A DNA stretch of 64,000 bases from Longimicrobium sp. (GTDB lineage Bacteria; Gemmatimonadota; Gemmatimonadetes; Longimicrobiales; Longimicrobiaceae), in assembly GCA_035691085.1 (NCBI GenBank), contig DASSJS010000264.1:375-64374 (forward strand), written 5' to 3'. Below are positions 5,897 through 50,956 of the stretch, one piece after another (positions within the stretch are counted from its first letter, which is position 1; every line of letters starts with the position of its first letter). The notes under the pieces were generated by a model. It worked only from the letters and a program-made list of their open reading frames with translations, ran no database searches and was not told the origin of the DNA. A program made the position numbers and the translations under genes.

Positions 5897-5963
5897 AGCC
5901 TCGCGCGGTTTGCGAGGCTTCTCGCCGTTGTTGCCGCGGCGCCGCGGCTTCGGGCCGCCGGTG
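5897..5963 (-). repeat. REP-A double-hairpin repeat (degenerate copy, reverse orientation)
   Basis: Reverse complement of the core CACCGGCGGCTGAAGCCGCAGCAACAACGACGAAAAGCCTCGCAAACTGCGCGAGGCT, which is found 7 more times in the window. Confidence 0.8.
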
Positions 5964-13714: not shown

Positions 13715-14835
13715 CGCGATCACCCCTGCGGAGGCTTGCCGCGATGAAGACGAGAATTCCTTGCGCCGCCGCGCTCACGGCCTCGCTGCTCTTCGGCCAC
13801 TCCGCGCAGGCGCAGTCCGACATCCTCCTGCGTTTGCGTTCGGGAACTCCCGCGGGCGACCGGTTCCGCGTGGACAGCGCGGGCGGGGTGGTGTCGCTGG
13901 GGATCAACACCCCGCCGTGCACCGCCTCCATCCCCGCCACCGGCGCGGGGAACCGGCTGATGTGGCACCCCTGCAAGGCCGCCTTCCGCGCCGGCACCGT
14001 GTCGGGCGCGCAGTGGGACGACGCCAGCGTGGGCCTGTACTCGTGGGCGGGGGGCGTGGGGTCCACCGCCAGCGGCCAGAGCGCGCTGGCCTTTGGCGAC
14101 GGGGCCACGGCGGGCGGGCAGGGCTCGGTGGCGCTGGGGTACCGGGTGACGGCGGCGAGCAACTACTCGGTGGCGCTGGGCTTCCGCGCGTCGAACAACG
14201 CGAAGACGGGCAGCATGGTGCTGGGCGACCAGTCGGCCACCGACTCGGTGCTGAACCAGAACAACAACGAGTTCCGCGCGCGCTACGCGGGCGGTTTTCG
14301 GCTCCGCACCAGCGCCGCGGCGAACGCCGCGCCGGGCGTGTCGGCGAACACCGGGTGCGACCTGCCCGCGGGGAGCGGCACCTGGACCTGCGCGTCGAGC
14401 CGCACGGTGAAGGAGAACTTCAGGGCGGTGGACGGCAACGACGTCCTGCTCCGCATCCGCGGCACCCCGGTTACCACCTGGAGCTACATCGCCGAGGGGC
14501 GGCAGGTGCGGCACATGGGGCCCGTGGCCGAGGACTTCGCCGCGGCGTTTGGGCTGGGCGTGGGCAGCAGCAGCATCGGCCTGGGTGACATCGACGGGGT
14601 GAACTTCGCGGGTGTGCAGGCGCTGGAGGCGCGCACCGCCCGGCTGCAGCGGCAGGCGGAGGCGAGCGCGGCGCGCGTGGCCGCGCTGGAGGCCGAGCTC
14701 GCGGCTACGCGCCGGCAGCTGGCGGAGCTCGCCGCCCGGCTGGACCGGCTGGACCGGCTGGACCGGCTGGATCGGCAGGACCGGCTGGATCAGCAGGACC
14801 GGCTGGATCGGCAGGACCGGCTGGAGCAGCGCTGA
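13711..14835 (+). CDS. Secreted tail-fibre-like protein: YadA-head-like Gly/Ala/Ser repeats + peptidase S74 (intramolecular chaperone) domain + coiled coil
   Basis: The ATG overlaps the upstream stop (ATGA). Signal peptide ...LLFGHSAQAQ. The central part has Gly/Ala/Ser-rich repeats (STASGQSALAFGDGATAGGQGSVALG). The S74-like segment is SSRTVKENFRAVDGNDVLLRIRGTPVTTWSYIAEGRQVRHMGPVAEDFAAAFGLG...GDIDGVNFAGVQALEAR. Confidence 0.7.
   Translation: MTRSPLRRLAAMKTRIPCAAALTASLLFGHSAQAQSDILLRLRSGTPAGDRFRVDSAGGVVSLGINTPPCTASIPATGAGNRLMWHPCKAAFRAGTVSGAQWDDASVGLYSWAGGVGSTASGQSALAFGDGATAGGQGSVALGYRVTAASNYSVALGFRASNNAKTGSMVLGDQSATDSVLNQNNNEFRARYAGGFRLRTSAAANAAPGVSANTGCDLPAGSGTWTCASSRTVKENFRAVDGNDVLLRIRGTPVTTWSYIAEGRQVRHMGPVAEDFAAAFGLGVGSSSIGLGDIDGVNFAGVQALEARTARLQRQAEASAARVAALEAELAATRRQLAELAARLDRLDRLDRLDRQDRLDQQDRLDRQDRLEQR
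14740..14829 (+). repeat. In-frame 9/18-bp tandem repeat (CTGGACCGG; CTGGATCGGCAGGACCGG) encoding LDR/LDRQDR
   Basis: Read directly. It encodes LDRLDRLDRLDRQDRLDQQDRLDRQDRLEQ at the C-terminus of 13711..14835. Confidence 0.85.
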
Positions 14836-14884
14836 CCCGGCGGGCACTGCGCATCGGCTTCCGGGGCGCGCAAGAGGTCTCGCT

Positions 14885-15045
14885 CACCGGCGGCTGAAGC
14901 CGCAGCAACAACGACGAAAAGCCTAGCAAACTGCGCGAGGCTGGTCGTGGCGGGGAGGGGCTGCCGGGGCGCGCGAGAGGTCTCGCTCACCGGCGGCTGA
15001 AGCCGCAGCAACAACGACGAAAAGCCTCGCAAACGGCGCGAGGCT
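14885..15045 (+). repeat. Two tandem REP-A copies (cores 14885..14942 and 14988..15045) in about 100-bp units, plus a partial third unit to about 15095
   Basis: caccggcggctgaagccgcagcaacaacgacgaaaagcct(a/c)gcaaac(t/g)gcgcgaggct occurs twice, between the convergent S74-protein gene and thrC. Confidence 0.85.
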
Positions 15046-15122
15046 GGTCGTGGCGGGGAGCGGCCCGGCGGGGCGCGCGAGAGTTCTCGCGACAGGTGGC
15101 CGCTCCACGTCTGTTGTATCGC

Positions 15123-16424
15123 CTACCGATTCTGCGGCGGATCCGCGCTGAGAGCTTCGCGGAGCGCGTCCAGAGTCGGCTCCAGCGGCTCGGCGTGCGA
15201 GGGTTGCTCCAGCAGGCGCTGAAGCTCGGCGGGGACGGGGACGGCGCGGCCCACCAGCGGCTCCACGACGGATTCGAACTTGGCGGGATGGGCGGTGGCG
15301 ACGATGATCCAGTCGCCACCGCCCAGTCGTTCGCGCACGGCCACGGCGGTGGCGGTGTGCGGGTCCCACACCTCGCCCCAGGCGTCCACACCTTCGCGGA
15401 TCACGCGGCGGATGTCGTCATCATCCACCTTCTCCGCCCGAAGTGCGCCGCGCGCCGCATCCTCGCCGCCGAACAGATGGAGGATGCGCTCCATGTTGCT
15501 GGGGCTGCCGACGTCCATCGCCGTGGCGAGCGTGGCGACGGTGGGGTGCGCGGCCCACGCGGCGCCGCCGGTGAAGGTGGTGAGGGCGGGGTTGGCGTTG
15601 GTGGCCATCACCACCTGGCGGATGGGCACGCCCACGCGCAGCGCCCAGAGCGCCGCGGTGGCGTTGCCCACGTTCCCCGAGGGGATGATGAAGCCGGGCT
15701 CCGTGCCGTGGCGGCGGCGGTAGGCATGGGCGGCCCAGGCGTAATACGCCATCTGCGGCAGCAGGCGGCCCACGTTGATGCTGTTGGCGGATGACAGGCG
15801 CCGCGCGGCGCGCAGCTCCGGGTCGGCCATTGCGGCCTTCACCAGGCGCTGGCAGTCGTCGAAGGTGCCGCGCACGGCGAAGGCGCGCACGTTGCCGCCC
15901 CACGCGGTGAGCTGCTTTTCCTGCCGCGGCGAGACCATCCCCGCCGGGTAGAGCACTGCCACCTCCACCCCCGGCCGCCCATGGAACGCCGCCGCCACCG
16001 CGCCGCCCGTGTCGCCCGAGGTGGCGACGAGGATGGTGAGCGGGCGGGCATCCGCATCCCCCGAAACAATCCGCGAGAGCACGGCCGCCAGGAAGCGCGC
16101 GCCCACGTCCTTGAACGCCGCGGTGGGTCCGTGGAACAGCTCCAGCACCGCCGTCCGCTCGCGCAGGTCGCGCAGCCGCACGGGAAAGGTGAATGCCTCG
16201 GCGCAGATCTCCGCCAGCTCGCCCGCCAGTGCATCGCCCGCGAAGAAGGGTGCCAGCAGCCGGACGGCGACTTCGGCCAGCGTCTCCGCGCCGTCGAGCG
16301 CGTCGGTCGGGAGGGTGGGGAAGATTTCGGGGACGTAGAGGCCACCGTCCGGCGCGATCCCGCGGAGCACGGCTTCACTGAGCGTGGCGGCGTGGGCGGG
16401 GTCGCGGGTGCTGATGTATCTCAT
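15123..16424 (-). CDS. thrC: Threonine synthase
   Basis: 433-aa ORF. The N-terminus MRYISTRD...LSEAVLRGIAPDGGLYVPE and the PLP-fold body are typical of ThrC. It lies downstream of thrA-thrB. Confidence 0.9.
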   Translation of the reverse strand: MRYISTRDPAHAATLSEAVLRGIAPDGGLYVPEIFPTLPTDALDGAETLAEVAVRLLAPFFAGDALAGELAEICAEAFTFPVRLRDLRERTAVLELFHGPTAAFKDVGARFLAAVLSRIVSGDADARPLTILVATSGDTGGAVAAAFHGRPGVEVAVLYPAGMVSPRQEKQLTAWGGNVRAFAVRGTFDDCQRLVKAAMADPELRAARRLSSANSINVGRLLPQMAYYAWAAHAYRRRHGTEPGFIIPSGNVGNATAALWALRVGVPIRQVVMATNANPALTTFTGGAAWAAHPTVATLATAMDVGSPSNMERILHLFGGEDAARGALRAEKVDDDDIRRVIREGVDAWGEVWDPHTATAVAVRERLGGGDWIIVATAHPAKFESVVEPLVGRAVPVPAELQRLLEQPSHAEPLEPTLDALREALSADPPQNR

Positions 16425-16560
16425 CTATCGATTGTCACCGGAGATCCGAATCGGGGGTGCGGCTGGGCCCGGCGGATGAATCCGCGGCTCCGTGGCAACA
16501 ACGGCGCGTGGTCCGTCTGCGCGGACTGCACACGTGCATCCGTGTGATGGGCGGGCGAGG

Positions 16561-16628
16561 GTGCATGCCGCGGCGGCCCCCTCCCCCCGGCCCCCTCCCC
16601 GCGCTCCGCGGGGGAGGGGGAGCACTAC
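16561..16628 (-). repeat. REP-B GC-rich palindromic repeat (CCCCTCCCCGCG-N3-CGCGGGGGAGGGG core)
   Basis: gtgcatgccgcggcggccccctccccccggccccctccccgcgctccgcgggggagggggagcac. Related copies occur at 31196, 51231, 57040, 57144 and 62161. Confidence 0.8.
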
Positions 16629-16676
16629 ACGATGAAGTCGCGCGCCGTGTACGCCAGGGTGAGGGTGGGTGCCGCG

Positions 16677-17621
16677 TCACTCCACCGTTTCCAGCCGCGC
16701 GCCCGGGCCATCCACCGGCGATACCCAGCCGGCGGCCTCGACGTGGGCCGAGCGGAAGGCGGCGACCATGGCGCCACACACGGAGGACGCGACCTCATCT
16801 CCCACGCACCACGCGAACATGCTGGGGCCGGCGCCGCTGATGGAGCAGCCGAGCGCGCCCGCCTGCATCGCCGCGGCCTGCACTTCGTGGAAGGCAGGGA
16901 TCAGGCGCGCGCGGTGCGGCTCCACCAGCACGTCGCGCAAGCACCGGGCGATCAGCTCCAGGTCGCCGCGGTAGCAGCCCGCCACCACCCCGGCCAGGTT
17001 CGCGCACTGGTGAATCACGTCGTGCAGCGGAAACTCGCGCGGGAGCACGGCGCGCGCGTCGCGGGTGTTCACGCTCAGGTCGGGGCGCACCAGCACGCAG
17101 CGCAGCCCGGCCGGCGCGGGGAGCGGCACCACGTCGGGCGGATCGGCCGAGCGGACCAGCACCAGCCCGCCGAACAGCGAGGGCGCCACGTTGTCACCGT
17201 GCACCGCGCCGCTGGCGATCGCCTCGCCGGCCAGCGCGTACGGGAACAGCTCCGCCGTGGCGAGCGGCCGGGGGAGCAGCGCGTTGGCGGCCACCACCGC
17301 GGCCACGGCGGAGGCGGCCGACCCGCCGATCCCCGAGCCGAGCGGGATTCCCTTGTCGATCGAAACGGAGATGCCCAGCTCCGGCGCGTGGTCGGCCAAC
17401 AGACGCAGCACGGCGCCGCCGGCGGTGTTCGCGGCGGGGTCCGTGGGCAGGGGGCCGGCGATGCCCGTCACCGCGCCCATGACCACGCCGGGCGCCTCGG
17501 TCCGCGTGACGGTGACGCGGTCGCCGGCGCCGGCGAGGGGGTGGCCCAGCAGGTCGAAGCCCACGGCCAGGTTGGAGGTGGTGGCCGGGGCGAAGGCGGT
17601 GGCGCGCGCGGGCAGAGTCAC
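16677..17621 (-). CDS. thrB: Homoserine kinase
   Basis: The GTG start overlaps the thrA stop (GTGA) and is in frame with ORF 16677..18518. GHMP-kinase motif GIPLGSGIGGSAASAVAA. Confidence 0.85.
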   Translation of the reverse strand: MTLPARATAFAPATTSNLAVGFDLLGHPLAGAGDRVTVTRTEAPGVVMGAVTGIAGPLPTDPAANTAGGAVLRLLADHAPELGISVSIDKGIPLGSGIGGSAASAVAAVVAANALLPRPLATAELFPYALAGEAIASGAVHGDNVAPSLFGGLVLVRSADPPDVVPLPAPAGLRCVLVRPDLSVNTRDARAVLPREFPLHDVIHQCANLAGVVAGCYRGDLELIARCLRDVLVEPHRARLIPAFHEVQAAAMQAGALGCSISGAGPSMFAWCVGDEVASSVCGAMVAAFRSAHVEAAGWVSPVDGPGARLETVE

Positions 17622-20092
17622 GGCTCGTTCCCCAGGTAGCTGGCCAGGCGCAGCAGGTCGGCGAACACGCCGGCGGCGGTCACCTGCGGGCCGGCGCCGG
17701 GGCCCTGCACGATCAGCGGGTTGGGCGTGTACCGCCGCGTCTGGAACTGCACGATGTTGTCGGTCAGGTTGAGGCGGGCGAAGGGGTGCTGGGCCGGGTA
17801 GCCGCGGAGCCGCACGCTGGCGTTGCCATCGCGATCGACCACGCCCACGAAGCGGAGCCGCTCGCCGCGGGCGTGCGCGTCGCGGCAGAGCCGGGCGAAG
17901 GCATCGTCGTGGCCGCGCAGGTTGCAGAGGAAGTCGTCCACGCTGCCCCCCTCCAGCTCGGGCGGCACCAGCCCCTCCAGCTCCACGTCGGTCAGCTCCA
18001 GCCGCAGCCCCATCTCGCGGGCCAGGATGACGACCTTGCGGGCCACGTCGGCGCCGGACAGGTCGTCGCGCGGGTCGGGCTCGGTGAAGCCCTCGCGCCG
18101 CGCCTGCGCCACCAGCTCCGAGAAGGGGCGCTCGCCGTCGAAGGCGTTGAACAGGTAGCTGAGCGTGCCCGAGAGCACCCCCTCGATCCGCTCGACCTCG
18201 TCGCCCGTGGCGATCAGCTCGCGCAGCGTCTGGATGATGGGGAGGCCGGCGCCCACGGTGGTCTCGTACAGGTAGTGCGCGGCGGGGCGGCGGCCCAGGC
18301 GGCGCAGCTCGTCGTAGTACTCCAGCTCCAGCGTGCTGGCGCGCTTGTTGGGGGTGATCACGTGGATGCCGCGGCGCATCCACTCGCCGTAGCGGCGCGC
18401 CACCCCCTCGTCGGCCGTGCAGTCGATGAGCACCGTGTGCGGGAGGTGGTCGGCCTGCACGTGGTCCACGAAGGCGTCCAGGTCGAACGCATCCCCCGCC
18501 TCCATCGCCTGGCGCCACTCACCCAGGTGGATGCGCCGCCCGTCCAGCGCCATCCGGCTGCGCCCGGCGATGCCGCGCACGCGGATGTCCACGCCGCGCT
18601 CGTCGCGGATCGCCTCCACCCGCTCGGCCAGCTGGCCCAGCAGCGCCGAGCCCACGGTGCCCGGGCCGATGATCCCCACCGACAGCGTCTGGCGCGACAG
18701 GTACAGCCCCGAGTGCACGGCGCGCAAGGCACGCTCGCCCTGCGCCCCATCCACCACCACCGAGATGTTGCGCTCGGACGAGCCCTGCGCGATGGCGCGG
18801 ATGTTCACCCCCGCCCCGGCCAGCGCGCCGAAGAAGCGCGCCGCCACCCCCGGGTGCCCCGCCATCCCGTCGCCGACCACGGCGAGCAGGGTGCAGCCGG
18901 GGTCCACCTCGGCCGCCTGGATCAGCCCGTGGTGGCGCTCGGCGAAGAAGGCGGCGTCCACCGCGGCCCGCGCGGCCTGCGCCAGCCCGGCGGGGACCGC
19001 GAGGCAGATGGAGTGCTGCGAGCTCCCCTGGCTCACCATCAGCGCCTCCACCCCGGCTTCGCGCAGCGCGGCGAAGAGGCGCGCGGCGGTGCCGGGGACG
19101 TCGCCCATCCCCGGCCCTTCCAGGTTGAGCAGCGCCACGGCCTCGACCGAGGAGATCCCCTTCACCCCGCCCTGCGGCGCGCCCTCGGCGTCGATGCGGG
19201 TGCCCGGCGCGTCGGGGCGGAAGGTGTTGCGGATGTAGACGGGGATGCCGTGCTCCACGGCGGGGCGCATGGTGGCCGGGTGCACCACCTTGGCGCCGAA
19301 GTGGGCCAGCTCCATCGCCTCGCGGTAGCTGAGCCGGTCCAGCACCAGCGCGTCGGGGACCAGGCGGGGGTTGGCGCTCATCACCCCGTCCACGTCGGTC
19401 CAGATGTGGATCTCGGCCGCGCCCAGCAGCGCGCCGAAGATGGAGGCGGAGTAGTCGCTGCCGTTGCGGCCCAGTGTCGTGGGCACGCCCGCGGCGGTGG
19501 AGGCCACGAAGCCGGTGATCACCAGCGTTTCGGGGAGGCCGCCGCGCGCCTGCGCCCACGCGCGCATCCGCTCGTGCGACGCGGGCCAGTCGATGCGCAC
19601 GGCGCCCTCGCCCGGCTCGGCGACCAGCACCTCGCGCGCGTCGAGCCAGGCGCCGCCCGCGCCGCCGCCGGCCAGGTGCGCGGCCAGCAGGCGCGCGCTC
19701 CACACCTCGCCCAGCCCGGCCACCATGTCGGCAGCGCCGCGCGGGGAGTGGCGCACGATCCAGGCGGCGCGCAGCACGTCGTCCACGTCGGCGAACTCGC
19801 GCTCCATCGCCTCGCGCACGGCGGCCAGGGCGGGCCCTTCCAGCAGCTCGGCGGCGGTCTGCAGGTGGCGCTCGTGCAGGGCCGCCAGCTCGCGCCGGTA
19901 CGCGGCGTCGCGCGCGCCGGCCAGCTCCACCACGCGCACGAGCGCGTCGGTGACGCCCGACATGGCGGAGACGACCACGGCGCGGCGCGCCTCGGGGCGG
20001 CCCAGCACGATCCGCGCGACGGCGCGATAGCGCTCGGCGCTGGCCAGGCTGGTGCCGCCGAACTTGTGGACGACCAGCGACGGATCACTCAT
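17618..20092 (-). CDS. thrA: Bifunctional aspartokinase / homoserine dehydrogenase
   Basis: ORF 17618..20119, with MSDPSLVVHKFGGTSL (KFGGTS aspartokinase signature) as the plausible start at 20092. Central ACT region, then a C-terminal homoserine dehydrogenase with GPGTVGSALLGQL. Confidence 0.9.
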   Translation of the reverse strand: MSDPSLVVHKFGGTSLASAERYRAVARIVLGRPEARRAVVVSAMSGVTDALVRVVELAGARDAAYRRELAALHERHLQTAAELLEGPALAAVREAMEREFADVDDVLRAAWIVRHSPRGAADMVAGLGEVWSARLLAAHLAGGGAGGAWLDAREVLVAEPGEGAVRIDWPASHERMRAWAQARGGLPETLVITGFVASTAAGVPTTLGRNGSDYSASIFGALLGAAEIHIWTDVDGVMSANPRLVPDALVLDRLSYREAMELAHFGAKVVHPATMRPAVEHGIPVYIRNTFRPDAPGTRIDAEGAPQGGVKGISSVEAVALLNLEGPGMGDVPGTAARLFAALREAGVEALMVSQGSSQHSICLAVPAGLAQAARAAVDAAFFAERHHGLIQAAEVDPGCTLLAVVGDGMAGHPGVAARFFGALAGAGVNIRAIAQGSSERNISVVVDGAQGERALRAVHSGLYLSRQTLSVGIIGPGTVGSALLGQLAERVEAIRDERGVDIRVRGIAGRSRMALDGRRIHLGEWRQAMEAGDAFDLDAFVDHVQADHLPHTVLIDCTADEGVARRYGEWMRRGIHVITPNKRASTLELEYYDELRRLGRRPAAHYLYETTVGAGLPIIQTLRELIATGDEVERIEGVLSGTLSYLFNAFDGERPFSELVAQARREGFTEPDPRDDLSGADVARKVVILAREMGLRLELTDVELEGLVPPELEGGSVDDFLCNLRGHDDAFARLCRDAHARGERLRFVGVVDRDGNASVRLRGYPAQHPFARLNLTDNIVQFQTRRYTPNPLIVQGPGAGPQVTAAGVFADLLRLASYLGNEP

Positions 20093-20128
20093 TTTTTGTC
20101 GTGCTCCGGTGTGGATCAACGTGCGGGC

Positions 20129-20162
20129 GAAGAAAAGCGGCCCGGGATCGCTCTCGGGCCGC
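20129..20162 (-). terminator. Intrinsic terminator/attenuator hairpin in the thrA leader (GCGGCCCG-N10-CGGGCCGC + TTTTCTTC)
   Basis: On the minus strand an 8-bp GC stem is followed directly by a T-tract, 36 nt before the thrA ATG and after a Thr-codon leader ORF. Confidence 0.6.
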
Positions 20163-20191
20163 TCGCGTCTGCCGGTGTGGTCGCGCGCAGG

Positions 20192-20278
20192 CTACCGGCG
20201 CACACCTCTCCAGCCGCGGCCCGGGATGCGGGTGGTGGTGGCCGGGGTGCGGGGAGGGCGACGGGCGGCGTCGGTCAT
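20192..20278 (-). CDS. Candidate thr-operon leader peptide (28 aa, MTDAARRPPRTPATTTRIPGRGWRGVRR)
   Basis: C-terminal part of ORF 20192..20482, starting at its internal ATG. It has three consecutive ACC (Thr) codons plus further Thr and Ile codons, and sits just upstream of the terminator hairpin. Confidence 0.45.
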   Translation of the reverse strand: MTDAARRPPRTPATTTRIPGRGWRGVRR

Positions 20279-20522
20279 GGCTTCCAATCGATAACCCGGT
20301 TCGGGACCGAAGTCAAGCAGGCGGGTGCTCGTGGTGGCGCGTTCGGGGTGAATGGTTACTCCGCCGAGGCGAGCGGTTCGTCCATGTGGCCGGACGGTTC
20401 CGAAGGCTTGGAGGCGGGTCGCGCCAGAATGGCTCGCGAGGCCACCCCAACTCTTCTCCGCTGTCAGAAATCGCGCGTGCACGCGGGCTCACGGGGCGAA
20501 CGGGCGCGGACGCGGGATCACG

Positions 20523-20972
20523 TTAGCCGCGGCGCCAGTACTCGTGCCCTGCGGGATAGCGCCAGTGTGCCACGCCGCCCTTTCCCGAGCAGGTTCCGGG
20601 GCGGCTCCGGCTCTCGGAGAAACCGCCGTTCCTGCATAGGGCAGACTTCCCCTCGGGCCATACGGCAGGCGGACCAGAAAGGACGGTGACGTGTGCCGGT
20701 GCCGTGACGGCCGCCTCCGCCAGGTGTGAAACCCACGAGATGCCGTTGGGGAACGTGGTGCCGAGTGCCAAGGCTGCGGCGGCATATGCGCCCAGCCATC
20801 GGCGCGGCATCCGGGACCTGGGTGGCGCGGGACGGTTGGGCGGGGGAGGAGTGTTGATCACCGTCACGTGCACGTCACCCACGTGCATGTCGCGGCCGGC
20901 CACCTTTACGTCGTTGTTCGTCCCTGAAACGTTCACGGACCGCCGCGTGCCCGGCTCACCGTCTGCGCTCAT
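20523..20972 (-). CDS. Membrane-anchored DUF3761-like protein
   Basis: Internal ATG (MSADGE...) of ORF 20523..21083, with a TM segment (WLGAYAAAALALG). The C-terminal CRNGGFSESRSRPGTCSGKGGVAHW matches the DUF3761 pattern. Paralogous in architecture to 9643..10269. Confidence 0.6.
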   Translation of the reverse strand: MSADGEPGTRRSVNVSGTNNDVKVAGRDMHVGDVHVTVINTPPPPNRPAPPRSRMPRRWLGAYAAAALALGTTFPNGISWVSHLAEAAVTAPAHVTVLSGPPAVWPEGKSALCRNGGFSESRSRPGTCSGKGGVAHWRYPAGHEYWRRG

Positions 20973-21306
20973 GATGAGATCTTCACTTGTGGACAATGCG
21001 GAAATCGCTCCGCCCCGATCACGCCATCGGAGCCCCGACAGGTAAGCCCTGTTGGAGCCAAATTCGACGCATCGTGCGCACAAGTCAAGGAAAATCGATT
21101 GTTCGAATGCGCGTATTCTGCGTCACCTCCGGCACGATACGGATCGGCGTGACATTTCGATTCAAGATGCCGACGAATGCAATCGGCAGCGCCAGCGCGC
21201 GGCCGATGATCCTGCCACGAACTCCCCGCCAAGCCCCATAACGCCGCGCTCCACTCCGTTGATGAAGAATCGATCGTCATCCAGGCCTGAGCGTGGAGTT
21301 AAGTAT

Positions 21307-21341
21307 GGATCCTTCAGTCGCTTAGGCTCGTTCAGGATGAC
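21307..21341 (-). repeat. REP-D repeat (short copy)
   Basis: ggatccttcagtcgcttaggctcgttcaggatgac. Confidence 0.6.
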
Positions 21342-21617
21342 AGCGTAGAGTACTCTCCGAACCAACGGGCCACCTGGATTTGAGATGAGATCGCAAACCG
21401 CATTTCAACACAAGGGACGACAAGGGACACGAAATCCGACTTGCCCGGGTCATCCGGCAAGGGAATGGTTACAGTGTTCCCGGTTGCGCCGATCCTGCTA
21501 CCAGCATATGTTTGTCGCTGCGGAGGATCTTTTGGGACATCGAAGGTAAACGTTACGCGCGTCATGGCAGCCTCCGCGACGGTCGGACGCGCGAAATCCA
21601 AGGGGAAGGGTAGTACC

Positions 21618-21794
21618 ATGAAGAAGATCACGCTGAACGTCGACGCCCTCGAAGTCACCACCTTCGAGACCGCCCAGGTCGAGCTCCAGGCGGGCACCGT
21701 CGAGGCGTTCCTTGGCACCAAGGCCCAGCAGTACACCTGCGACCCGCTCGTGGGCACCTGCTTCGGCTACACCTGCGCCGGCGCCGGCTGCTGA
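21618..21794 (+). CDS. RiPP-precursor-like peptide P1 (58 aa, 4 Cys)
   Basis: Internal ATG of ORF 21441..21794 with AAGGGG upstream. MKKITLNVDALEVTTFETAQVELQAGTVEA is followed by FLGTKAQQYTCDPLVGTCFGYTCAGAGC. The leader is shared with the 37902 and 46357 peptides, and a terminator follows. Confidence 0.6.
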   Translation: MKKITLNVDALEVTTFETAQVELQAGTVEAFLGTKAQQYTCDPLVGTCFGYTCAGAGC

Positions 21795-21824
21795 GCCACT
21801 GCCGGACCGTGAAGTAACCACGAA

Positions 21825-21891: not shown

Positions 21892-21949
21892 CACCGGCGG
21901 CTGAAGCCGCAGCAACAACTACGAAAAGCCTCGCAAACTGCGCGAGGCT
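21892..21949 (+). repeat. REP-A copy
   Basis: caccggcggctgaagccgcagcaacaactacgaaaagcctcgcaaactgcgcgaggct. Confidence 0.85.
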
Positions 21950-22031
21950 TCACCAGCCCGGTGGCGGCATCGCGGCTCGATCCGCCACGAGGTCTCCACT
22001 TCGCCTTTCATCTCCGCGTCGACTCGGGAAA

Positions 22032-27728: not shown

Positions 27729-27864
27729 ATCGTCCGGTCGTGTTTCGGTAACGCACTGCGCATGCTGATGCCGCGCAAGGGCTTCCCGTCTCATCCCGAG
27801 TCTTCCGCCGCGCTGCGCGCGGCCACGGAGGACGAACGTGGTCACACGAGGTTCAGGCTGTTGG

Positions 27865-27922
27865 AGCCTCGCGCGGTTTGCGAGGCTTTTCGTCGTTGTT
27901 GCCGCGGCTTCAGCCGCCGGTG
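27865..27922 (-). repeat. REP-A copy (reverse orientation)
   Basis: agcctcgcgcggtttgcgaggcttttcgtcgttgttgccgcggcttcagccgccggtg, between the two permease genes. Confidence 0.85.
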
Positions 27923-40851: not shown

Positions 40852-41763
40852 ATGCTGTATGATCGCGATATTGTGAGAGTGCGTGAGAAGCTGGAGTTCT
40901 TTAAGAAGGCAGCAATCTGGCCATTGGAATTTAGTTTTGACCCGGAAGGTTGGCTTACAAATTTCCGGGATGACGAACTGGACGTTGCTGTCGCTCTTCT
41001 CGATGGATTTTCATACTTCGCACCGGAGCTTACCAAAAAGATTCTCAGCACTGCTTTCCATCGACTGAGCCACTACGTGGCAGACCCTTCGAGTGCGCCT
41101 GCTGAACGGATAAATCTTTGGGACGGGTTTCGGGAAAGCGTGATTATCACGTATCCGACGGACGAACGACCAGGAGCTACAGACAGCGGGCGCACCTACC
41201 TCCGCAAGGCGAGAACAATTCTTGGGCTAGAGCAAGAGCAGTATATGGATCCAGTTGATGCGCTTTCCGCGCGTATTTTAGATCCGTCTAGACCACTAAT
41301 CTTTCTTGATGATTTCGCCGGAAGTGGGAATCAATTTTGTGAGACTTGGCATAGACCCTACATGATCGCTGGACGGCGTTGGTCTTTCAACTCGGCAGGT
41401 GGTGCAGGACTTTTGGCGTATATTCCGATACTCAGTTCCCACATGGCAGTTCGGAGCATTGATCGATGTGCATCGAACGTCCTGTTTCTACCAGGGCATG
41501 TCGTAGGGGAGGAATATTCCGCCTTCCACCCTGAGTCAGTGCTTTGGCCATCGCCGGAAGTGCAACAGAAAGCCCGAGATGTTATCTACGAGGCGAGCGC
41601 GCGCGCCGGGATTCCACTCGGCGATGGATCCGTGCCGGACGATTGGTGCGGATACCGAGAGTTAGGACTAGCGTTGGCGATTGACGACACCATTCCCGAT
41701 GCCTGCCTAACGATTCTGTACTGGAACGCGAATGGCTGGCAACCGTTGTTCAGGAGGCCGTAA
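40852..41763 (+). CDS. Operon gene A: PRTase-like protein (303 aa)
   Basis: Low-GC ORF. PLIFLDDFAGSGNQF resembles the PRPP-binding loop of type I phosphoribosyltransferases (hhhhDDhxxTGxT). The TAA stop abuts the gene B ATG. Confidence 0.75.
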   Translation: MLYDRDIVRVREKLEFFKKAAIWPLEFSFDPEGWLTNFRDDELDVAVALLDGFSYFAPELTKKILSTAFHRLSHYVADPSSAPAERINLWDGFRESVIITYPTDERPGATDSGRTYLRKARTILGLEQEQYMDPVDALSARILDPSRPLIFLDDFAGSGNQFCETWHRPYMIAGRRWSFNSAGGAGLLAYIPILSSHMAVRSIDRCASNVLFLPGHVVGEEYSAFHPESVLWPSPEVQQKARDVIYEASARAGIPLGDGSVPDDWCGYRELGLALAIDDTIPDACLTILYWNANGWQPLFRRP

Positions 41764-43644
41764 ATGCAAGAGGATGTATTCACCGCTTTACGGGCGGTAT
41801 TCGGTCGGTATAAGGCCGAGTGGCTACGTGGGGATGTTTTTCGTCTGTTCCAGAAACCCGGGTACTTTCCGGAATTGGAAGAGCCGAGGCCGACTGCACT
41901 CATCGGAGGACGGGGGACAGGTAAAACCAGTGTATTAAAGAGCCTTTCCTATAGAGGGCATTTCGAGTTAAGTGGCAAGTCTGCCGCAGCCGCTGTTAAC
42001 GCCCCGTACGTCGGACTGTATTGGTGCATCGATTCTAACCGGGTTACAGCTTTTGCTGGGCCTGAGCTCGAGCCCAAGCAGTGGATAAGGCTGTTTGCAC
42101 ACTATGTTAACTTGGAAATCGTAGCGATGTTTTGTGAGTATGTCCTTTGGTTTGAAAACACGACTGGAACAACTGTCACGGTGCCACAATCCAGACTAGC
42201 GAAAGTTGGGACTGCTCTCCACATCACGGGTGCGGCGACGATAAACGAGCTCGCGTCTAAGGTGAGTGAAGCGCTGGTTACTTTGGAAGCTAGCATCAAC
42301 TCCGTTGCGGATCGCGCAAATGCCCCGCTGAGCATGCAAAGCGTGCCGATCGAGTACTTAGCGGAGGCCCTGATTTCAACTGATGCCTTCAGTGGAAAGG
42401 TTTTTTACATAGTTGTTGACGAATTTGAGAACTTGGACGAAACGCAACAATCTCTGTTCAACACGCTCATCAAGCATGGCCGTGACAAGTTTGCGTTCAA
42501 GATTGGAATGAAAGACTCGGGATGGCGGACCAAAGCCACCCTTAATGGTGAAATCTTGACGCATCCGGCAGACTACGACCTGATCGATCTATCGGAACGT
42601 TTTGGTAATGGTCAGTACCCGAGTTTTGCTCGTGAAGTATGTGAGGCTCGGTTGGCTCACGCCTTTGTAAGGGCGGGTCTTGTAAACATGCCTCCGGAGA
42701 TTCCCTCCTATTTTCAAGACCTTGCGGTGGATGAAGAGGCTCGACTGCTGGGGTTAGGTCGGCGGATCGCCCCAATTCGCGCGAGTGTTATGAAGGACCC
42801 TAACGCCTCCGAGCTGTTGAACGATCTCTCGGATCTCGACCTGTACTACCTCCACCGGCGGGCAGAGAGTGAGAGTGTATCTTTGACCGAGATCTTGGCT
42901 GAATACAGTTTGAATCCCAAAGGCTATCTATCTAGCTACAGAGAAAACTACCGACAGTCCTTGCTATTTACGATAAGCGAGCACTCCGGGAAAGGCCTGC
43001 AAAAGTACTATTCAGGATGGAATACCCTCACAAAGGTATCCGGCGGGAACATTCGTTATTTAGTGGAAATCGTGGAGCGGGCATTTGAACTCCACCGCAC
43101 TACAAGTAACGACATTCGCAAGGCTGTATCAGCTCGCGATCAAACAGAGGCTTGTATTGCTGTGGGACGCAAGTACGTGCAAGAAGTACAGGCTTTAGAC
43201 CCACAGGGACACAGGCTCACATTCCTGCTACTTGGCCTCGGTCGTCTGCTGAATCTTCTAGCGCGCCATTCTCTTGGGAAGCAGCCAGATACAACGTCAT
43301 TTGTACTTGCGCGTCCCACTTCTCAGGAGATAGCCCAAGAACTTGATGATCTGTTGCGTATCGCGGTGATGCATCAGGTACTGCGGAAGTGGCCAGCGAC
43401 TAAATTGACGAGTCACACCGAAGCGAAGGAATCCGAGTATTCTGTGCATCCAATCTTTGCTGCGTTCTTTGTATTCCCTTATCAGAAGAAACGTCGGATC
43501 AGGATTTCGGGTGAGGATCTACTACTGCTCTCTGTGGACCTGAAGGCTGGGTTGGCGGCGGTACTGAATGCTGTCGGACAGCCCGATGATCCTACTGAGG
43601 CTCTTCCACGGCAACTGAGTCTTTTCGAGGCAGCATATGAGTGA
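41764..43644 (+). CDS. Operon gene B: P-loop NTPase, ORC/Cdc6-like AAA+/STAND-like (626 aa)
   Basis: Walker A LIGGRGTGKTSV, Walker B VFYIVVDEFENL, and a long helical C-terminal region. Translationally coupled on both sides. Confidence 0.8.
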   Translation: MQEDVFTALRAVFGRYKAEWLRGDVFRLFQKPGYFPELEEPRPTALIGGRGTGKTSVLKSLSYRGHFELSGKSAAAAVNAPYVGLYWCIDSNRVTAFAGPELEPKQWIRLFAHYVNLEIVAMFCEYVLWFENTTGTTVTVPQSRLAKVGTALHITGAATINELASKVSEALVTLEASINSVADRANAPLSMQSVPIEYLAEALISTDAFSGKVFYIVVDEFENLDETQQSLFNTLIKHGRDKFAFKIGMKDSGWRTKATLNGEILTHPADYDLIDLSERFGNGQYPSFAREVCEARLAHAFVRAGLVNMPPEIPSYFQDLAVDEEARLLGLGRRIAPIRASVMKDPNASELLNDLSDLDLYYLHRRAESESVSLTEILAEYSLNPKGYLSSYRENYRQSLLFTISEHSGKGLQKYYSGWNTLTKVSGGNIRYLVEIVERAFELHRTTSNDIRKAVSARDQTEACIAVGRKYVQEVQALDPQGHRLTFLLLGLGRLLNLLARHSLGKQPDTTSFVLARPTSQEIAQELDDLLRIAVMHQVLRKWPATKLTSHTEAKESEYSVHPIFAAFFVFPYQKKRRIRISGEDLLLLSVDLKAGLAAVLNAVGQPDDPTEALPRQLSLFEAAYE

Positions 43645-44620
43645 ACGGATTCTCTTGCCGGTTTGCACTGGCCGCTTCACCTCGCGGGCCTCCTTCAACG
43701 TGCGTCCTGGCGCGGTATACATCTACGGAGAGTCGCTTGAGAATCGCAGCCACCTTCCGCAGAGTTGGATGGAAACGCAGGATTGCCACTTTTTTCGAGT
43801 GGAAGAACAGGAATATGAGCGTTTTGCGTTCACAGTTGCTGGGCGGGAATATCGCCTGCGCAGTCGCATCGATGTAGAGGCTTTCATAGATCACATTCTG
43901 GCAGTTTCCCCAGTCGTCTATGTAGACATCACAGGACTTAGTCACCATGTCTGGGCGCCCTTGATTTCGGAAATAGTGCTAAGGGTGGCCCGATTCCCAA
44001 ATGCGGGCATTCAATTAGCCGCAGTGTATGTAGAACCCGTGCATTATACCAAGTCGAAAGTCCCGCGTCCGGGCGACATCTTCGCACTGAGTGATAAATT
44101 GCATGGTATACGCCCGTTACCCGGGCTTGTCCGTCTTCGGCGACATGAGAGTGACAAGGCGATGATTGTAGCGCTTCTCGGATTCGAAGGGTGGCGCTTC
44201 GATGCAGTGCTTGCGAAGCTTGAACCGGACGCTGGGACTGTTGTACCGGTGATCGGTGTTCCTGGATTTCGCGCGGAGTACCCGTTCTACACCCTCGAAG
44301 GCAACATAATTCCGCTTGAGCGAGATGGTAACTGGACTCGGCGGAAGTTCGCGACGGCGAATGATCCTTTCGAAGTTTACCACATTCTCGAAATGCTGCA
44401 GACTCGACACCCTGAGACCCTTCTCAGGGTTGCATTGGTCGGGACGAAGCCCCATGCTCTCGGTGCCGTTATCTTCCATGCGGTGCACCCGGGGATGAGT
44501 GAACTCATCTACGATAACCCAGTACGGAGTGCCGGACGGACCGACTCTGACCGAACGCTCTTGGAGTACGACGTCTCCTCGTTCCTTGGGATGATGAACG
44601 ACCCAAGCTTCGCCGCATAA
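43637..44620 (+). CDS. Operon gene C: unknown protein with alternating beta/alpha (Rossmann-like) pattern (327 aa)
   Basis: The start overlaps the gene B stop by 8 nt. Strand-like segments VVYVDITGLSHH, AMIVALLGFEG, VVPVIGVPGF and LRVALVGTKPHALG. No catalytic motif recognised. Confidence 0.7.
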   Translation: MSERILLPVCTGRFTSRASFNVRPGAVYIYGESLENRSHLPQSWMETQDCHFFRVEEQEYERFAFTVAGREYRLRSRIDVEAFIDHILAVSPVVYVDITGLSHHVWAPLISEIVLRVARFPNAGIQLAAVYVEPVHYTKSKVPRPGDIFALSDKLHGIRPLPGLVRLRRHESDKAMIVALLGFEGWRFDAVLAKLEPDAGTVVPVIGVPGFRAEYPFYTLEGNIIPLERDGNWTRRKFATANDPFEVYHILEMLQTRHPETLLRVALVGTKPHALGAVIFHAVHPGMSELIYDNPVRSAGRTDSDRTLLEYDVSSFLGMMNDPSFAA

Positions 44621-44630
44621 CGAGTTCTAG

Positions 44631-45773
44631 ATGGCCACTCTTCCGAGTAGAGTGATGATCGACGCCCACTACACGCCGCCCTCGATCGCACGAGAACTTA
44701 TCAGCCACGTTGGTCGGCTGCTTCCGGGCTCTATTGCCGACTTCGCGGCTGGGGGCGGCGAGTTGCTCCTACAAGCTGCGAATAGGTGGCCGAGACGCGA
44801 ATTCGCTGCTTGCGATATCTCGCGCCAAGCTGTGGCCAGACTTTCCAGGGAACGACCCGAGTGGAAAATCGGCACGTGTGATTTCTATTCTTCGCGTTCG
44901 CGGGCAGCTTCGCGGGTTCTTCGTTCTGTGCGGGGCGATGTGGCGCTGTGTCTCGCAAACCCTCCGTTTTCCTATCGTGGTGGTGAGCAGTGGCGAGTTG
45001 TTCCGGCAACAGGGACGTCTCTTTTCTGTGGTCCAGCGATGGCATTCCTCCTGAATGCCGTTGAATATCTCCGACCGGGTGGACAATTGGTGGCCATCGT
45101 CCCTGCCAATGCCCTTAGGAGTGCGAAGGACGAGGCGGCAGTCAATTTTCTGAACGAGTCGGGGACGCTAAAACTACTCGACAGTTATCCCAGAGGAGCG
45201 TTTCCAAACTGCACTTCTCAAACTGTAAGTATTAGTTACCACCGCGACAGGGTATCGCGCGAAGTTGAGGTTGTTGGGAAAGAGGTTCGCGCCGTAAGGG
45301 TGGAGGTTGAACTTACTCGGGGAAGCACCCCGATGCACTCCGTTCTGCCTCTCGGCGCTGGGCACATACCTGTCGTGCACACGTCAGATCTCCGGAACAA
45401 CACTGTGCAGCGCCCTAATCATGGGGTCACACGGGCTAATAACGTTGTTCGTGGTCCCGCAGTGTTAGTTCCTCGAGTCGGGAAGCCACAAAGCGACAAA
45501 GTTGCAATTTACACAGCCGACGATCCGGTCGTACTGTCCGACTGCGTATTTGCGATTAGGTGTGCATCTGCAGGCGACGCTCTATACGTTCTAAACATCC
45601 TCTTGGCGAATTGGGTAATCCTTTGTCGAGTATATCACGGAACGTGCGCACCATATATCACGATTAAGGACTTGGTGGGAGCATTACATGGCATGGGAAT
45701 ACACGTGTGTGCCCGTTCGTCAGAGGTGCATAGCAACAACCTGCAACAAATCGCAGCGACGGTGGTCATCTAG
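44631..45773 (+). CDS. Operon gene D: gamma-class N6-adenine DNA methyltransferase (380 aa)
   Basis: Motif I IADFAAGGGELL (AdoMet binding) precedes motif IV LANPPFSY (NPPF/Y). The C-terminal about 180 aa are plausibly the target-recognition domain. Confidence 0.85.
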   Translation: MATLPSRVMIDAHYTPPSIARELISHVGRLLPGSIADFAAGGGELLLQAANRWPRREFAACDISRQAVARLSRERPEWKIGTCDFYSSRSRAASRVLRSVRGDVALCLANPPFSYRGGEQWRVVPATGTSLFCGPAMAFLLNAVEYLRPGGQLVAIVPANALRSAKDEAAVNFLNESGTLKLLDSYPRGAFPNCTSQTVSISYHRDRVSREVEVVGKEVRAVRVEVELTRGSTPMHSVLPLGAGHIPVVHTSDLRNNTVQRPNHGVTRANNVVRGPAVLVPRVGKPQSDKVAIYTADDPVVLSDCVFAIRCASAGDALYVLNILLANWVILCRVYHGTCAPYITIKDLVGALHGMGIHVCARSSEVHSNNLQQIAATVVI

Positions 45774-46356: not shown

Positions 46357-46533
46357 ATGGAAAAGCTGAGGCTGAACGTGGAGGAACTGACGGTGCAGTC
46401 GTTCGCCACGGACGATGCGGACGCGCAGATGGGCACCGTGCAGGGGCAGGAGGTGGCGGCGCCGAGCGCCTTCTACACGCGTTGCTGTCAGACGAACGAA
46501 GTCCAGTCGTGCCCGGCCCGCTGCACCCCGTGA
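46357..46533 (+). CDS. RiPP-precursor-like peptide P3 (58 aa, 4 Cys)
   Basis: Internal ATG of ORF 45688..46533 with GAGGA upstream. MEKLRLNVEELTVQSFATDDADAQMGTVQG is followed by QEVAAPSAFYTRCCQTNEVQSCPARCTP. Confidence 0.6.
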   Translation: MEKLRLNVEELTVQSFATDDADAQMGTVQGQEVAAPSAFYTRCCQTNEVQSCPARCTP

Positions 46534-46642: not shown

Positions 46643-46670
46643 GGCCCCGGCGATCCAGATCGCCGGGGCC
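46643..46670. terminator. Hairpin ggccccggcg-N8-cgccggggcc (left copy of a duplicated terminator)
   Basis: 10-bp stem between P3 (+) and the AKR fragment (-). Its counterpart lies at 49567..49593. Confidence 0.55.
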
Positions 46671-46708
46671 GAGTCACGTCAGCACGTGAGCAGGGAAGCC
46701 GACCGGCC

Positions 46709-46906
46709 TCAATCCGCCGCGGCCGTCTCCACCACCTGGGGCGCGCCGGGGAAGCCGTCGCCGGCGTAGCGGTAGTGCGGGCCCAGGTCGCTGCCGTCGC
46801 GGACCATGGTGCCCTTGTAGCGCATGTGCTCCTCGTGCACGCCGAAGTTGATGCGCTGCAACTCGTCGATGCGGCGCAGGCGGTCCGGAGTAGCCCAAGC
46901 ACGAGG
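46709..46906 (-). pseudogene. 3'-terminal fragment (about 65 codons) of an aldo/keto reductase gene, duplicate of the 3' end of 49634..50734
   Basis: About 180 bp are nearly identical to 49631..49808. It encodes ...RRIDELQRINFGVHEEHMRYKGTMVRDGSDLGPHYRYAGDGFPGAPQVVETAAAD and is bounded upstream by an in-frame TAG. Confidence 0.8.
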
Positions 46907-47081
46907 CTAGACGAGACAACTTCGCTTAAAGAACTTGCCTTTTGTGCCGATCCATCTTTATCGTACTGGCAATTCCATAGGAGTCTATACCCTGCAGGAA
47001 TGCGTTGCGGAGGTCACGACTTGCGTTCGGGCGCACGATGGCGGGTGCGCGAAGATTTACATCATTCCGGGAGATATTGCG

Positions 47082-47519
47082 ATGTGGCGAGTCATCTCGG
47101 CAGGGACCGTCTTCGCGCTCACCGCGATCGCGGCAGCGTGCGAAACGACGGGTGGGGCGCTCGGCACGATGGAACCACCCAGGAACTATACCGAGCTCAG
47201 GATGACCACCCGTGACGAGAGCTACCACCTCTCGCAATCTCAGCACGACCTGGTGCGCCGCGGGTTCGATGTGAACGCGCTCGAGCGCCTTTTGTCGCAC
47301 GTGCCGGTGTCACGGCGCGAGGAGATTCTCTCATCCTTCCTGTTATCGACTAACAACGAGATGCACGAGCTCTGGTACATCGGTGATCCGGGACTGCAGT
47401 CAATTCTGGAGGAGGTGTGGGCTCCGACATGGGAGCATCGCACGGCGGCGGAGATCGAGGCGGATCGCACGGAGCGCCCAGGTAAGCGTCTCGCCCTCGC
47501 CCGGCTGCGTTCGCGTTAG
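47082..47519 (+). CDS. Hypothetical lipoprotein (145 aa)
   Basis: Internal ATG (MWRVISAGTVFALTAIAAAC) of ORF 46935..47519, with signal peptide plus lipobox. Confidence 0.55.
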   Translation: MWRVISAGTVFALTAIAAACETTGGALGTMEPPRNYTELRMTTRDESYHLSQSQHDLVRRGFDVNALERLLSHVPVSRREEILSSFLLSTNNEMHELWYIGDPGLQSILEEVWAPTWEHRTAAEIEADRTERPGKRLALARLRSR

Positions 47520-47566
47520 AACGCCTCCCCCAAGTCTCCCTCGATCACGCATCCGAGGAGCTCACC

Positions 47567-48271
47567 ATGCGCATACGTCCGATATCTGCACTTCTTCTAG
47601 CCCTCGCCTGCGCTTCTATTTGGCCCTCGTATTTGTTCGCGCAGTATAGCCAACTGGAGCCAATGGCCTGTCCGTACAGGCTCAACCAGTTCCGGGTGGC
47701 TGTCGAGGCGCCGTCCGGTGAGAAGTACTTCTTCGTGGCGGATTGGATCCACGCATCCAACATCGGCAGCGGCGTCTCCAGCGCCTTCTACGATGTTGAT
47801 ACAACGCTCGGGCCATACTCGCCGCTCGGGCTGACGTCAGATGACGGAAAGGCCAGGTGGAAGTACCCAGGGATCTACGTTTCCTGCCACAAGCGTGTCT
47901 ACTATCGGGCGGATCGCTCGATAGAAAACGTGGTCCCGATCTACCGCGTGGAGTACACGGAAGGCGATATCCAGGAACTCGCGAGCACCTGCGGCCCGAA
48001 AACCTCCTACGCGGAGTATGACCCGTACGCCCCCACCAACGACGAAGACTGCTCGCACGACGGTTCCGGCAGCGGCGGTGGAAGCGGTATCCAGTTTGAA
48101 CCCGGCGACAGCACCGGCGGTGAGACAGTCGACTGGCAGACAGGAATCGGAAACGGCGGGGTCAGCGCCTGCGGGACGGCTGCTACCGTCGAGTACATCT
48201 GCATCGACCTATGGAACGACTTCGAGCAGAAGTGGGACCTGTACTCCTGCGGCTACGCAACAACCTGCTGA
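47567..48271 (+). CDS. Secreted hypothetical protein (234 aa), Cys-containing with Gly/Ser linker
   Basis: Signal peptide MRIRPISALLLALACASIWPSYLFAQ. Lower GC than the flanks. No family recognised. Confidence 0.6.
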   Translation: MRIRPISALLLALACASIWPSYLFAQYSQLEPMACPYRLNQFRVAVEAPSGEKYFFVADWIHASNIGSGVSSAFYDVDTTLGPYSPLGLTSDDGKARWKYPGIYVSCHKRVYYRADRSIENVVPIYRVEYTEGDIQELASTCGPKTSYAEYDPYAPTNDEDCSHDGSGSGGGSGIQFEPGDSTGGETVDWQTGIGNGGVSACGTAATVEYICIDLWNDFEQKWDLYSCGYATTC

Positions 48272-48283
48272 ACGGAGCAGACC

Positions 48284-48763: not shown

Positions 48764-48878
48764 ACGGCCGTTGGGATACACCGCCGGGCGAGAGCGCGAG
48801 AGGCAGCGCCCTCGCCCACCGACGTGCTTATATTCCGCTCGCTTGTCGTAAGCCAGAACGCCAGACTCGGAATGCGAG

Positions 48879-49535: not shown

Positions 49536-49633
49536 GCGGCGCAGATGGCGCAAAGAGATACGCGATGGCCCCGGCGAGCATCTCGCCGGGGCCAAGTCAT
49601 ATCACACGAGCAGAGCAGGGAAGTGCGTACGCC

Positions 49634-50734: not shown

Positions 50735-50956
50735 CAGAGCAGCCCTCCAATCAGGCGCGGAACAGGTCGTAAACGTCAGCGGGGGCGGATGAAACTCCCG
50801 CGAACTCAAAGCTGATGAGCAGACAGGAAAAGTGCTCTCCCCGGCGGGGCAGGGCAAGTGGGAAGATGCCCGACCGGGGCGATGGGGTGATGCCGGACGC
50901 GGCGCTTCGGCGGCATCATCACCAGACCGCCAGAGATCCGCTTCGGCGATTATGCC

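Follow-up and report, generated by a model that had tools for sequence, protein, structure and literature searches.

A genome-wide family of pinensin-like precursor genes in Longimicrobium, probably served by one class I lanthipeptide enzyme set

We describe a family of small precursor-like genes in a Longimicrobium genome, three members of which, P1, P2 and P3, lie in the 64,000-nucleotide stretch of DNA that was analysed as a whole and is here called the window (positions 375-64374 of contig C264). An earlier note, made from the letters of the window, had interpreted these genes as precursors of peptides that are made on ribosomes and modified after translation (RiPPs). Our results support that interpretation: approximately 209 genes share the leader, the genome encodes lanthipeptide enzymes, and three family members are found inside the enzyme cluster. 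P1, P2 and P3 are probably LanA genes of a pinensin-type class I lanthipeptide system, in which some 209 precursors spread over 136 loci depend on maturation machinery that is encoded once. The family is a genus-wide expansion to hundreds of genes, well beyond the three first seen. The genome is a metagenome-assembled genome (MAG) of 7.59 Mb in 546 contigs, with 71% GC, 93% completeness and 4% contamination.

The leader family

The leaders of P1, P2 and P3 have the common form M-K-K-L-x-L-x(2)-[DE]-x-L-x-V-[ED]-S-F-x-T…G-T-V-x-[GA]. A hidden Markov model (HMM) of these three leaders, searched against all six-frame open reading frames (ORFs) of the genome at E<0.01, identified about 164 genes, and one iteration brought the number to 209 genes on 101 contigs. 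The three-leader model recovers P1, P2 and P3 each at E values between 1e-17 and 1e-19 and picks up some 160 other genomic ORFs, which excludes chance similarity as the source of the resemblance between the three leaders. The family occupies 136 loci, of which 102 hold a solitary gene and 34 a tandem array of 2-8 genes. The leader consensus is MKKLKLDLDALRVESFATAAAAAARGTVRGH, with near-invariant residues at L6, L11, V13, S15, F16, G26, T27 and V28.

All 209 genes are intact ORFs, the majority visibly with an ATG start and a GGAG-type ribosome-binding site (RBS), and GGAG at -11 to -8 is the main position-specific signal 5' of the start codon across the family. No pair of members is 95% or more identical, and only four members fall at 80-95%; the count is therefore not inflated by duplicated strains, and we rejected co-binning of strains as a source of additional copies. 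The conserved leader sites have a pN/pS of 0.36, and different members use TCG, AGC or TCC as the codon for Ser15. Together, these two observations indicate selection on the peptide rather than on a DNA repeat.

The earlier note had also pointed to a likeness to the leaders of pinensin-type lanthipeptides, and the curated NCBIfam model NF038180 (leader_pinensin, cut-off 24 bits) agrees with this for part of the family. P3 scores 24.0 bits, equal to the cut-off, and 17 of the 44 family members sampled against the model match at E<=0.01, the best at 1.4e-5. P1 and P2 are unmatched by this model and belong to the same family as P3 by our own leader HMM. No Pfam family matches P1, P2 or P3, and leader_pinensin is the only relevant NCBIfam match; a match of P2 to an unrelated Maf-like model is at chance level (E 0.075, 12 bits against a cut-off of 315). 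Public databases label peptides of this family 'hypothetical protein'.

One tandem array departs from the usual composition. Its five members, at positions 4409-5597 of C374 on the minus strand, have cores that are almost free of cysteine and rich in Thr, Val and Ile, such as HSDTVVVTVTVTLTIEATVALSWIC, and would, if modified, give products rich in dehydrobutyrine instead of rings. The neighbours of this array are peptidoglycan-recycling genes, namely an amidase, an AmpG-like MFS transporter, a GH3 enzyme and AnmK.

The class I enzyme cluster

The earlier note had placed the modifying and export enzymes elsewhere in the genome, and this is where they are: one split LanB, a LanC, an ABC exporter, a membrane-fusion protein and an S8 protease are encoded on other contigs. 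While the genome has four LanC-like genes, it has only one LanB, which consists of two proteins. The glutamylation protein (Lant_dehydr_N, 163 bits) is encoded at C257 2412-5639 on the minus strand, and the elimination protein (Lant_dehydr_C, 134 bits) at C257 1427-2443 on the same strand; they are the sole such genes in the genome. A dehydratase divided in this way into Lant_dehydr_N and Lant_dehydr_C proteins is a trait of pinensin-type systems. The best NCBIfam match of the elimination protein is TIGR03891, 'thiopeptide-type bacteriocin biosynthesis'. The LanC gene adjoins the dehydratase (LANC_like, E 9.5e-57) and runs off the end of the contig, and its product has the LanM cyclase region as best NCBIfam match. 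An orthologue, P0121, carries the motifs WCHG and LCHG, which we take, by analogy with NisC, to be zinc-ligand motifs.

The rest of the cluster was followed by comparison with related loci, which were collected with LanB as the query and come from Longimicrobium sp. (Gemmatimonadota), mainly soil MAGs. The closest of them, at about 86% nucleotide identity, aligns successively with C257, C450 and C159. C450 carries the end of LanC, followed by three family precursors (1801-1941, 1480-1725 and 1331-1483, all on the minus strand) and the start of the ABC exporter; C159 carries the remainder of the exporter, an HlyD-type membrane-fusion protein and an S8 subtilase (P0186, 79 bits) with an intact D/H/S triad. 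As joined over three contigs by homology, the predicted cluster order is LanB(N), LanB(C), LanC, three LanA, LanT, membrane-fusion protein and LanP. Relatives have the same order on single contigs, with at most six small family genes between LanC and the ABC exporter (L055 and L056). The genes upstream of LanB vary among relatives and do not belong to the cluster. In the LanB glutamylation protein encoded on C257 (2412-5639), we observed long, acidic, Pro/Ala-rich inserts of low complexity, for example …PQPDPQIAGEAADASPAAKEDDPQPQAAAAPAGSPEAK…, that interrupt the Lant_dehydr_N match.

The LanC protein, of approximately 686 aa, consists of the LANC_like domain and a C-terminal extension of about 235 aa that has no significant Pfam match. 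A structure model of the extension based on an alignment of 14 sequences reached a pLDDT of 84 and a pTM of 0.79; prediction from the single sequence gave a pLDDT of 46 and was unusable. A profile search of PDB sequences with the extension found nothing. A Foldseek search of PDB with the model matched TglI of the TglHI complex (E 1.4e-5), NGO1945, PqqD and lasso-peptide B1 proteins, the last solved with bound leader peptides and matched at target TM-scores of 0.74-0.76. We take these matches to be RiPP-pathway proteins that contain a RiPP recognition element (RRE), together with their relative NGO1945. In addition, two LanC orthologues have sub-threshold matches to Pfam PqqD at the extension (E 0.007-0.012). 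Based on structure prediction, the extension reads as a leader-binding RRE fused to the cyclase. Such a fusion would account for the capture of precursors wherever in the genome they are encoded. In a word-limited search that may miss others, only LanCs of Longimicrobium/Gemmatimonadetes, in 61 protein clusters, were found to carry the extension.

Other enzymes of related kinds are encoded elsewhere. C531 holds, at 19026-21682, a class II LanM cut by the contig end; the separate 61-aa peptide next to it has a typical ...ELESVAGG leader and a hydrophobic core rich in Thr and Ile, and is unrelated to the family. Two family members lie on the same contig, about 19 kb from the enzyme. On the minus strand of C286 (2303-5900), genes for a LanC-like protein, a HopA1-family protein and an APH-type kinase stand in a row, presumably the arrangement of a three-component class V lanthipeptide synthetase, and no precursor was identified on this 6-kb contig. 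The sole ABC exporter with a C39 peptidase lies within C144 1036-7924, in an operon with genes for a TolC-like outer-membrane protein and an HlyD-type protein that is divergent from a family member of 112 aa.

Association of the leader with the enzymes

The leader is linked to the class I enzymes both physically and phyletically. In 10 related loci, family genes lie on the same strand as LanB within 0.5-5 kb of it. Across 24 congeners, LanB is present in all 19 genomes with at least 12 leader copies and missing from four of the five with 0-1 copies (Fisher p = 4.7e-4, uncorrected for phylogeny). Leader copy number within the genus ranges from 0 to more than 150, with at least 150 in several congeners. 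Other families of the order lack the leader, and in a sample of the phylum (201 genomes, 98 genera) the leader was found only in this genus, apart from one single match elsewhere. The earlier note had named beforehand, as the test on which its reading could fail, a search of the genome for further family members and enzymes; the search returned approximately 209 members, and the enzymes are present.

On C57, a second LanC paralogue has a family member of 109 aa directly after it. The C-terminal region of this LanC has a sub-threshold match to NGO1945_C (E 0.00096, 20 bits against a cut-off of 27). The locus spans 13717-20461; its precursor has 11 Cys, a TauD-like dioxygenase, a methyltransferase and two ABC transporters are encoded nearby, and it adjoins a gene for a non-ribosomal peptide synthetase (NRPS) that exceeds 9200 aa. 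This may be a lanthipeptide locus with tailoring of its own.

Core composition

The cores of the family are hypervariable and contain 16% Cys and 13% Thr. In the 166 of 209 members that bear the G-T-V-x-[G/A] motif, to which the following counts and spacings refer, the median core has 40 aa with 6 Cys and 8 Ser+Thr, and Ser+Thr equals or exceeds Cys in 161 cores. The number of Cys is odd in 76 of the 166 cores, which makes purely disulfide-bonded folds a poor fit. Compared with shuffled cores, Ser or Thr is enriched at the position directly preceding Cys (z = 23.6) and at the position five residues ahead of it (z = 18.1). Spacings of 4, 8 and 12 between Cys residues are also overrepresented, which amounts to a repeated [S/T]-C-x-x unit of period 4. 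This composition and spacing fit the formation of thioethers. The cores are mostly unique within the genome; a cluster of 54 cores obtained by BLAST was rejected, since low-complexity, Cys-rich matches chained by single linkage account for it.

The genes P1, P2 and P3

The three ORFs exist as the earlier note described them, with matching N-termini and with 58 aa in both P1 and P3. P1 (21618-21794, plus strand) encodes a peptide ending in ...FLGTKAQQYTCDPLVGTCFGYTCAGAGC. Its leader of 30 aa, MKKITLNVDALEVTTFETAQVELQAGTVEA (21618-21707; leader HMM E 2e-17), contains the L-x-V-x-[ST]-F box and the G-T-V-x-[GA] motif; the core FLGTKAQQYTCDPLVGTCFGYTCAGAGC with the stop codon occupies 21708-21794 and has three [Y/G]-T-C units and a C-terminal Cys, in the pattern YTC...GTC...YTC...GC. 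P2 (37902-38198, minus strand) encodes 98 aa, with a 30-aa leader (38198-38109; leader HMM E 6e-19) and a 68-aa core with 10 Cys. P3 (46357-46533, plus strand) has its leader at 46357-46446 and a core with 4 Cys.

The note's claim that each gene has its own RBS holds for all three. A Shine-Dalgarno-like AAGGGGAAGGG, read from the sequence, lies 5' of P1 (21600-21610, plus strand), GGAG precedes P2, and GAGGA precedes P3. The claim of a terminator for every gene stands for P1 and is not supported for the other two. A GC-rich hairpin of 15 bp 3' of P1 (21825-21858, plus strand; -46.5 kcal/mol, z = -4.4), which none of 200 shuffled sequences matched in folding, has a short T-containing tail after the stem and is a probable transcription terminator; a scan for strict T-tail terminators did not call it. 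Folding downstream of P2 and of P3 does not exceed that of shuffled sequence.

The C-termini had been described as unrelated, which is true among P1, P2 and P3 and does not extend to other genomes. The P1 core TCDPLVGTCFGYTC is kept in at least 10 related peptides from other Longimicrobium genomes and metagenomes, and this conservation exceeds that of the leader. One P1-type core protein from another genome, P0106 (locus L054), has gene neighbours that differ from those of P1, so that positional orthology is not supported. The P2 core segment CGTGPxTIYSCD is also present in a paralogue (C326_24352). P3 sits between a low-GC, four-gene cassette of defence type (40852-45773) and a repeat-bracketed aldo-keto reductase cassette (46643-49821) and thus lies in a region that shows signs of rearrangement or acquisition.

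A contig of 221 nt at depth 22 in X1, a soil-type metatranscriptome, spans 21586-21799 at 93% identity, that is, P1 and 32 nt upstream; no coverage of the P1 flanks was found in X1 at 90% identity or more. Transcription of P1 orthologues as short units has modest support from these data.

A short distance downstream of P1, at 21892-21950, we noted one copy of a dispersed element of approximately 58 nt, …GGCGGCTGAAGCCGCAGCAACAACTACGAAAAGCCTCGCAAACTGCGCGAGGCTTCACC…, which occurs in 338 copies on 182 contigs of the genome. Further copies in the window lie at about 5897-5940 and at 14885-14942, 14988-15045, 27856-27922, 50955-51014 and 51089-51146. The element is very abundant in soil metatranscriptomes, on many different contigs, with a summed depth of 500-670. 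It folds into hairpins, and its minus-strand hairpin followed by UUUUCGU looks like a terminator for the kinase gene ending at 22032. It has no Rfam match, and 13 of the 338 copies lie near a family member, which does not indicate any specific link.

Proposed pathway and alternative explanations

Our favoured reading is that of P1-P3 as dispersed LanA genes served by the cluster on C257, C450 and C159. Each precursor would be translated from its own RBS, and the predicted RRE at the C-terminus of LanC would bind the conserved leader, as LanB presumably does too. The key recognition element may be the L-x-V-E-S-F box, approximately 14-17 residues before G-T-V-x-[G/A]. The split LanB would then dehydrate Ser and Thr of the core, the glutamylation protein acting first and the separate elimination protein second, and LanC would add Cys thiols to the dehydro residues to form thioether rings. 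Finally, the S8 protease of the cluster may cut off the leader, and the ABC exporter with the membrane-fusion protein may export the product. If recognition relies on the leader, tandem duplication and divergence of cores would yield a natural library of hundreds of Cys/Thr-rich products. That the dispersed precursors, P1-P3 included, are modified in trans is what we infer, and the cleavage site, the ring patterns and any biological role of the products are likewise putative.

Several observations weigh against this proposal. No modifying enzyme was found near P1, P2 or P3; precursors stand beside enzymes in the case of the three C450 paralogues and in the 10 related loci. An all-against-all BLAST of the 568 genes within 4 kb of family members revealed no recurring locus-linked enzyme or neighbour family around the 136 loci, and we rejected the idea of such an enzyme, as only generic paralogue families recur (histidine kinases, ABC ATPases, SDRs, NRPS and aldo-keto reductases). 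The cluster itself is joined across three contigs by homology to a relative and not by continuous assembly. Upstream of the 209 genes, we found no shared promoter or operator, only the RBS and a C-rich tract, with no 7-mer beyond z ~3.8, and this gives no support for co-regulation with the cluster. As for the leader, P1 and P2 are below the NCBIfam pinensin model; 43 of the 209 members, including two of the three cluster genes, are without G-T-V-x-[G/A], which makes any role of this motif tentative; and one congener (G024) has LanB with a single leader match. RNA support consists of one short contig from a relative's P1 orthologue, and metatranscriptomes can carry DNA; for P2 it is weak, one 115-nt contig at depth 2, and for P3 no specific contig was found, only a leader fragment of a paralogue. 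Lastly, the LanM and the class V set of the genome could in principle take some of the substrates.

These points have to be weighed together with three other explanations. The earlier note had kept open that the products are disulfide-rich secreted peptides, and our data disfavour this alternative. According to it, the peptides would be unmodified, similar to bacteriocins or defensins, with a shared N-terminus that does no more than signal export or a propeptide, as it might for an ABC exporter that contains a peptidase. The high Cys content of the cores and the enzyme-free surroundings of most loci are in line with this view, as is the member at C144 1036-1374, which adjoins the TolC-like protein, the HlyD-type protein and the C39-peptidase ABC exporter. 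However, the odd Cys counts in 76 of 166 cores are unfit for all-disulfide folds, and disulfides leave the excess of Ser/Thr directly before Cys unexplained. Just before its final G/A the leader may have R, H, A, Q or L, so that a double-glycine site with Gly at -2 is lacking, and there is one C39 exporter in the genome, near only one of 136 loci. We therefore rejected this exporter as a general processing route, since it is present in a single copy and the leader is not of the double-glycine type. The leader also matches the pinensin model, is found together with LanB across the genus and lies within LanBC clusters, and overall we regard unmodified peptides as unlikely.

It would be about as improbable, in our estimation, that only precursors in or near LanBC clusters are substrates and that dispersed copies such as P1-P3 are decaying, silent or co-opted, and remain unmodified. 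The failure to find a shared promoter motif and the restriction of RNA support to the P1 orthologue agree with such a scenario, and a copy number between 0 and more than 150 within one genus suggests fast turnover. Against it, all 209 ORFs are intact, most visibly with a GGAG-type site and ATG, and the leader box is preserved at the amino-acid level through synonymous changes. The P1 core is conserved across several genomes even though the one related locus checked (L054) has other neighbours, and the contig of the P1 orthologue at depth 22 is transcript-sized, with flanks uncovered at 90% identity or more.

The possibility that the cores undergo another chemistry, either azol(in)e or thiopeptide modification of the [S/T]-C units or modification by the LanM or by the class V set (kinase, HopA1-like and LanC-like proteins), appears very slight. 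Repeated [S/T]-C units look like azole-forming cores, the elimination-domain protein matches the thiopeptide-type TIGR03891 best, and both the LanM (C531) and the set of LanC-like, HopA1 and APH proteins (C286) are present. YcaO (PF02624), however, is unmatched in this 93%-complete genome whereas five control genomes match, and azole/thiopeptide chemistry was dropped because YcaO is absent. Moreover, the LanM has a separate GG-type peptide adjoining it, the class V contig has no family member, and family members are embedded in the LanB-LanC cluster both here and in relatives.

Comparison with known systems

With nisin-type class I systems, the Longimicrobium cluster shares the dehydratase, cyclase, ABC exporter and subtilisin-like S8 protease, and the position of its leader box, some 14-17 residues before the putative leader end, is comparable to that of the FNLD box in the nisin leader. 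It differs in that LanB is split, LanC is predicted to be fused to an RRE, and precursors number in the hundreds and are encoded in trans. Additionally, it includes an HlyD-type membrane-fusion protein, as expected of a Gram-negative envelope, and no immunity genes were identified.

A close likeness is to the pinensin system of Chitinophaga pinensis, also of class I. Pinensin biosynthesis uses a split LanB, and the LanCs of the pinensin family group with LanM cyclase domains (PMC7268733); similarly, the Longimicrobium dehydratase is split, and the closest curated match of its LanC is a LanM cyclase domain. The leader family points in the same direction, with P3 at the NF038180 cut-off and matches for 17 of the 44 sampled members, although P1 and P2 fall below that model. 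The host belongs to Gemmatimonadota and not to Bacteroidota, and in contrast to the pinensin precursors, which lie inside one cluster, almost all of the approximately 209 Longimicrobium precursors are far from the enzymes. The predicted RRE domain of about 235 aa fused to LanC is a further difference, and so are the long (median 40 aa), very Cys-rich cores with period-4 [S/T]-C-x-x units.

A genome note on Longimicrobium terrae lists three lanthipeptide clusters (PMC7291104), and in the searchable literature we found no description of the present precursor expansion. Cluster-based genome-mining tools such as antiSMASH would miss nearly all genes of the family. Should the dispersed precursors be processed, peptide engineering would gain in the LanB/LanC pair a class I tool of unusual substrate tolerance, the LanC-RRE fusion would exemplify a way to tether a cyclase to a leader, and the thousands of Cys/Thr-rich cores in soil Longimicrobium would represent an untouched pool of natural products.

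The textbook case of a promiscuous enzyme with many precursors is class II, represented by ProcM and SyncM. Many prochlorosin precursors are encoded at a distance from their synthetase, and their leaders are of the Nif11/NHLP type (PMC7268733); SyncM is described as modifying up to 79 SyncA substrates (PMC9872173). The Longimicrobium system resembles them in having one enzyme set, many precursors, a conserved leader and a hypervariable core. No Nif11/NHLP leader was seen among the Pfam and NCBIfam matches of its peptides, its host is a soil Gemmatimonadota bacterium instead of a marine picocyanobacterium, and its enzymes are a tRNA-dependent split LanB and a separate LanC, in contrast to the bifunctional LanM of class II. 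The approximately 209 precursors, against 79, are about 2.6 times the largest single-strain figure that we found, namely the one given for SyncM. It is tempting to hypothesize, if at somewhat less than even odds, that one class I set (split LanB plus LanC-RRE) matures more than 200 cores per cell. No larger natural lanthipeptide library would then be known, and the prochlorosins would have their first counterpart in class I; the period-4 cores could form ladder-like overlapping thioethers of a kind undescribed so far. A class I, tRNA-dependent system appears to use the same strategy of few enzymes and many precursors.

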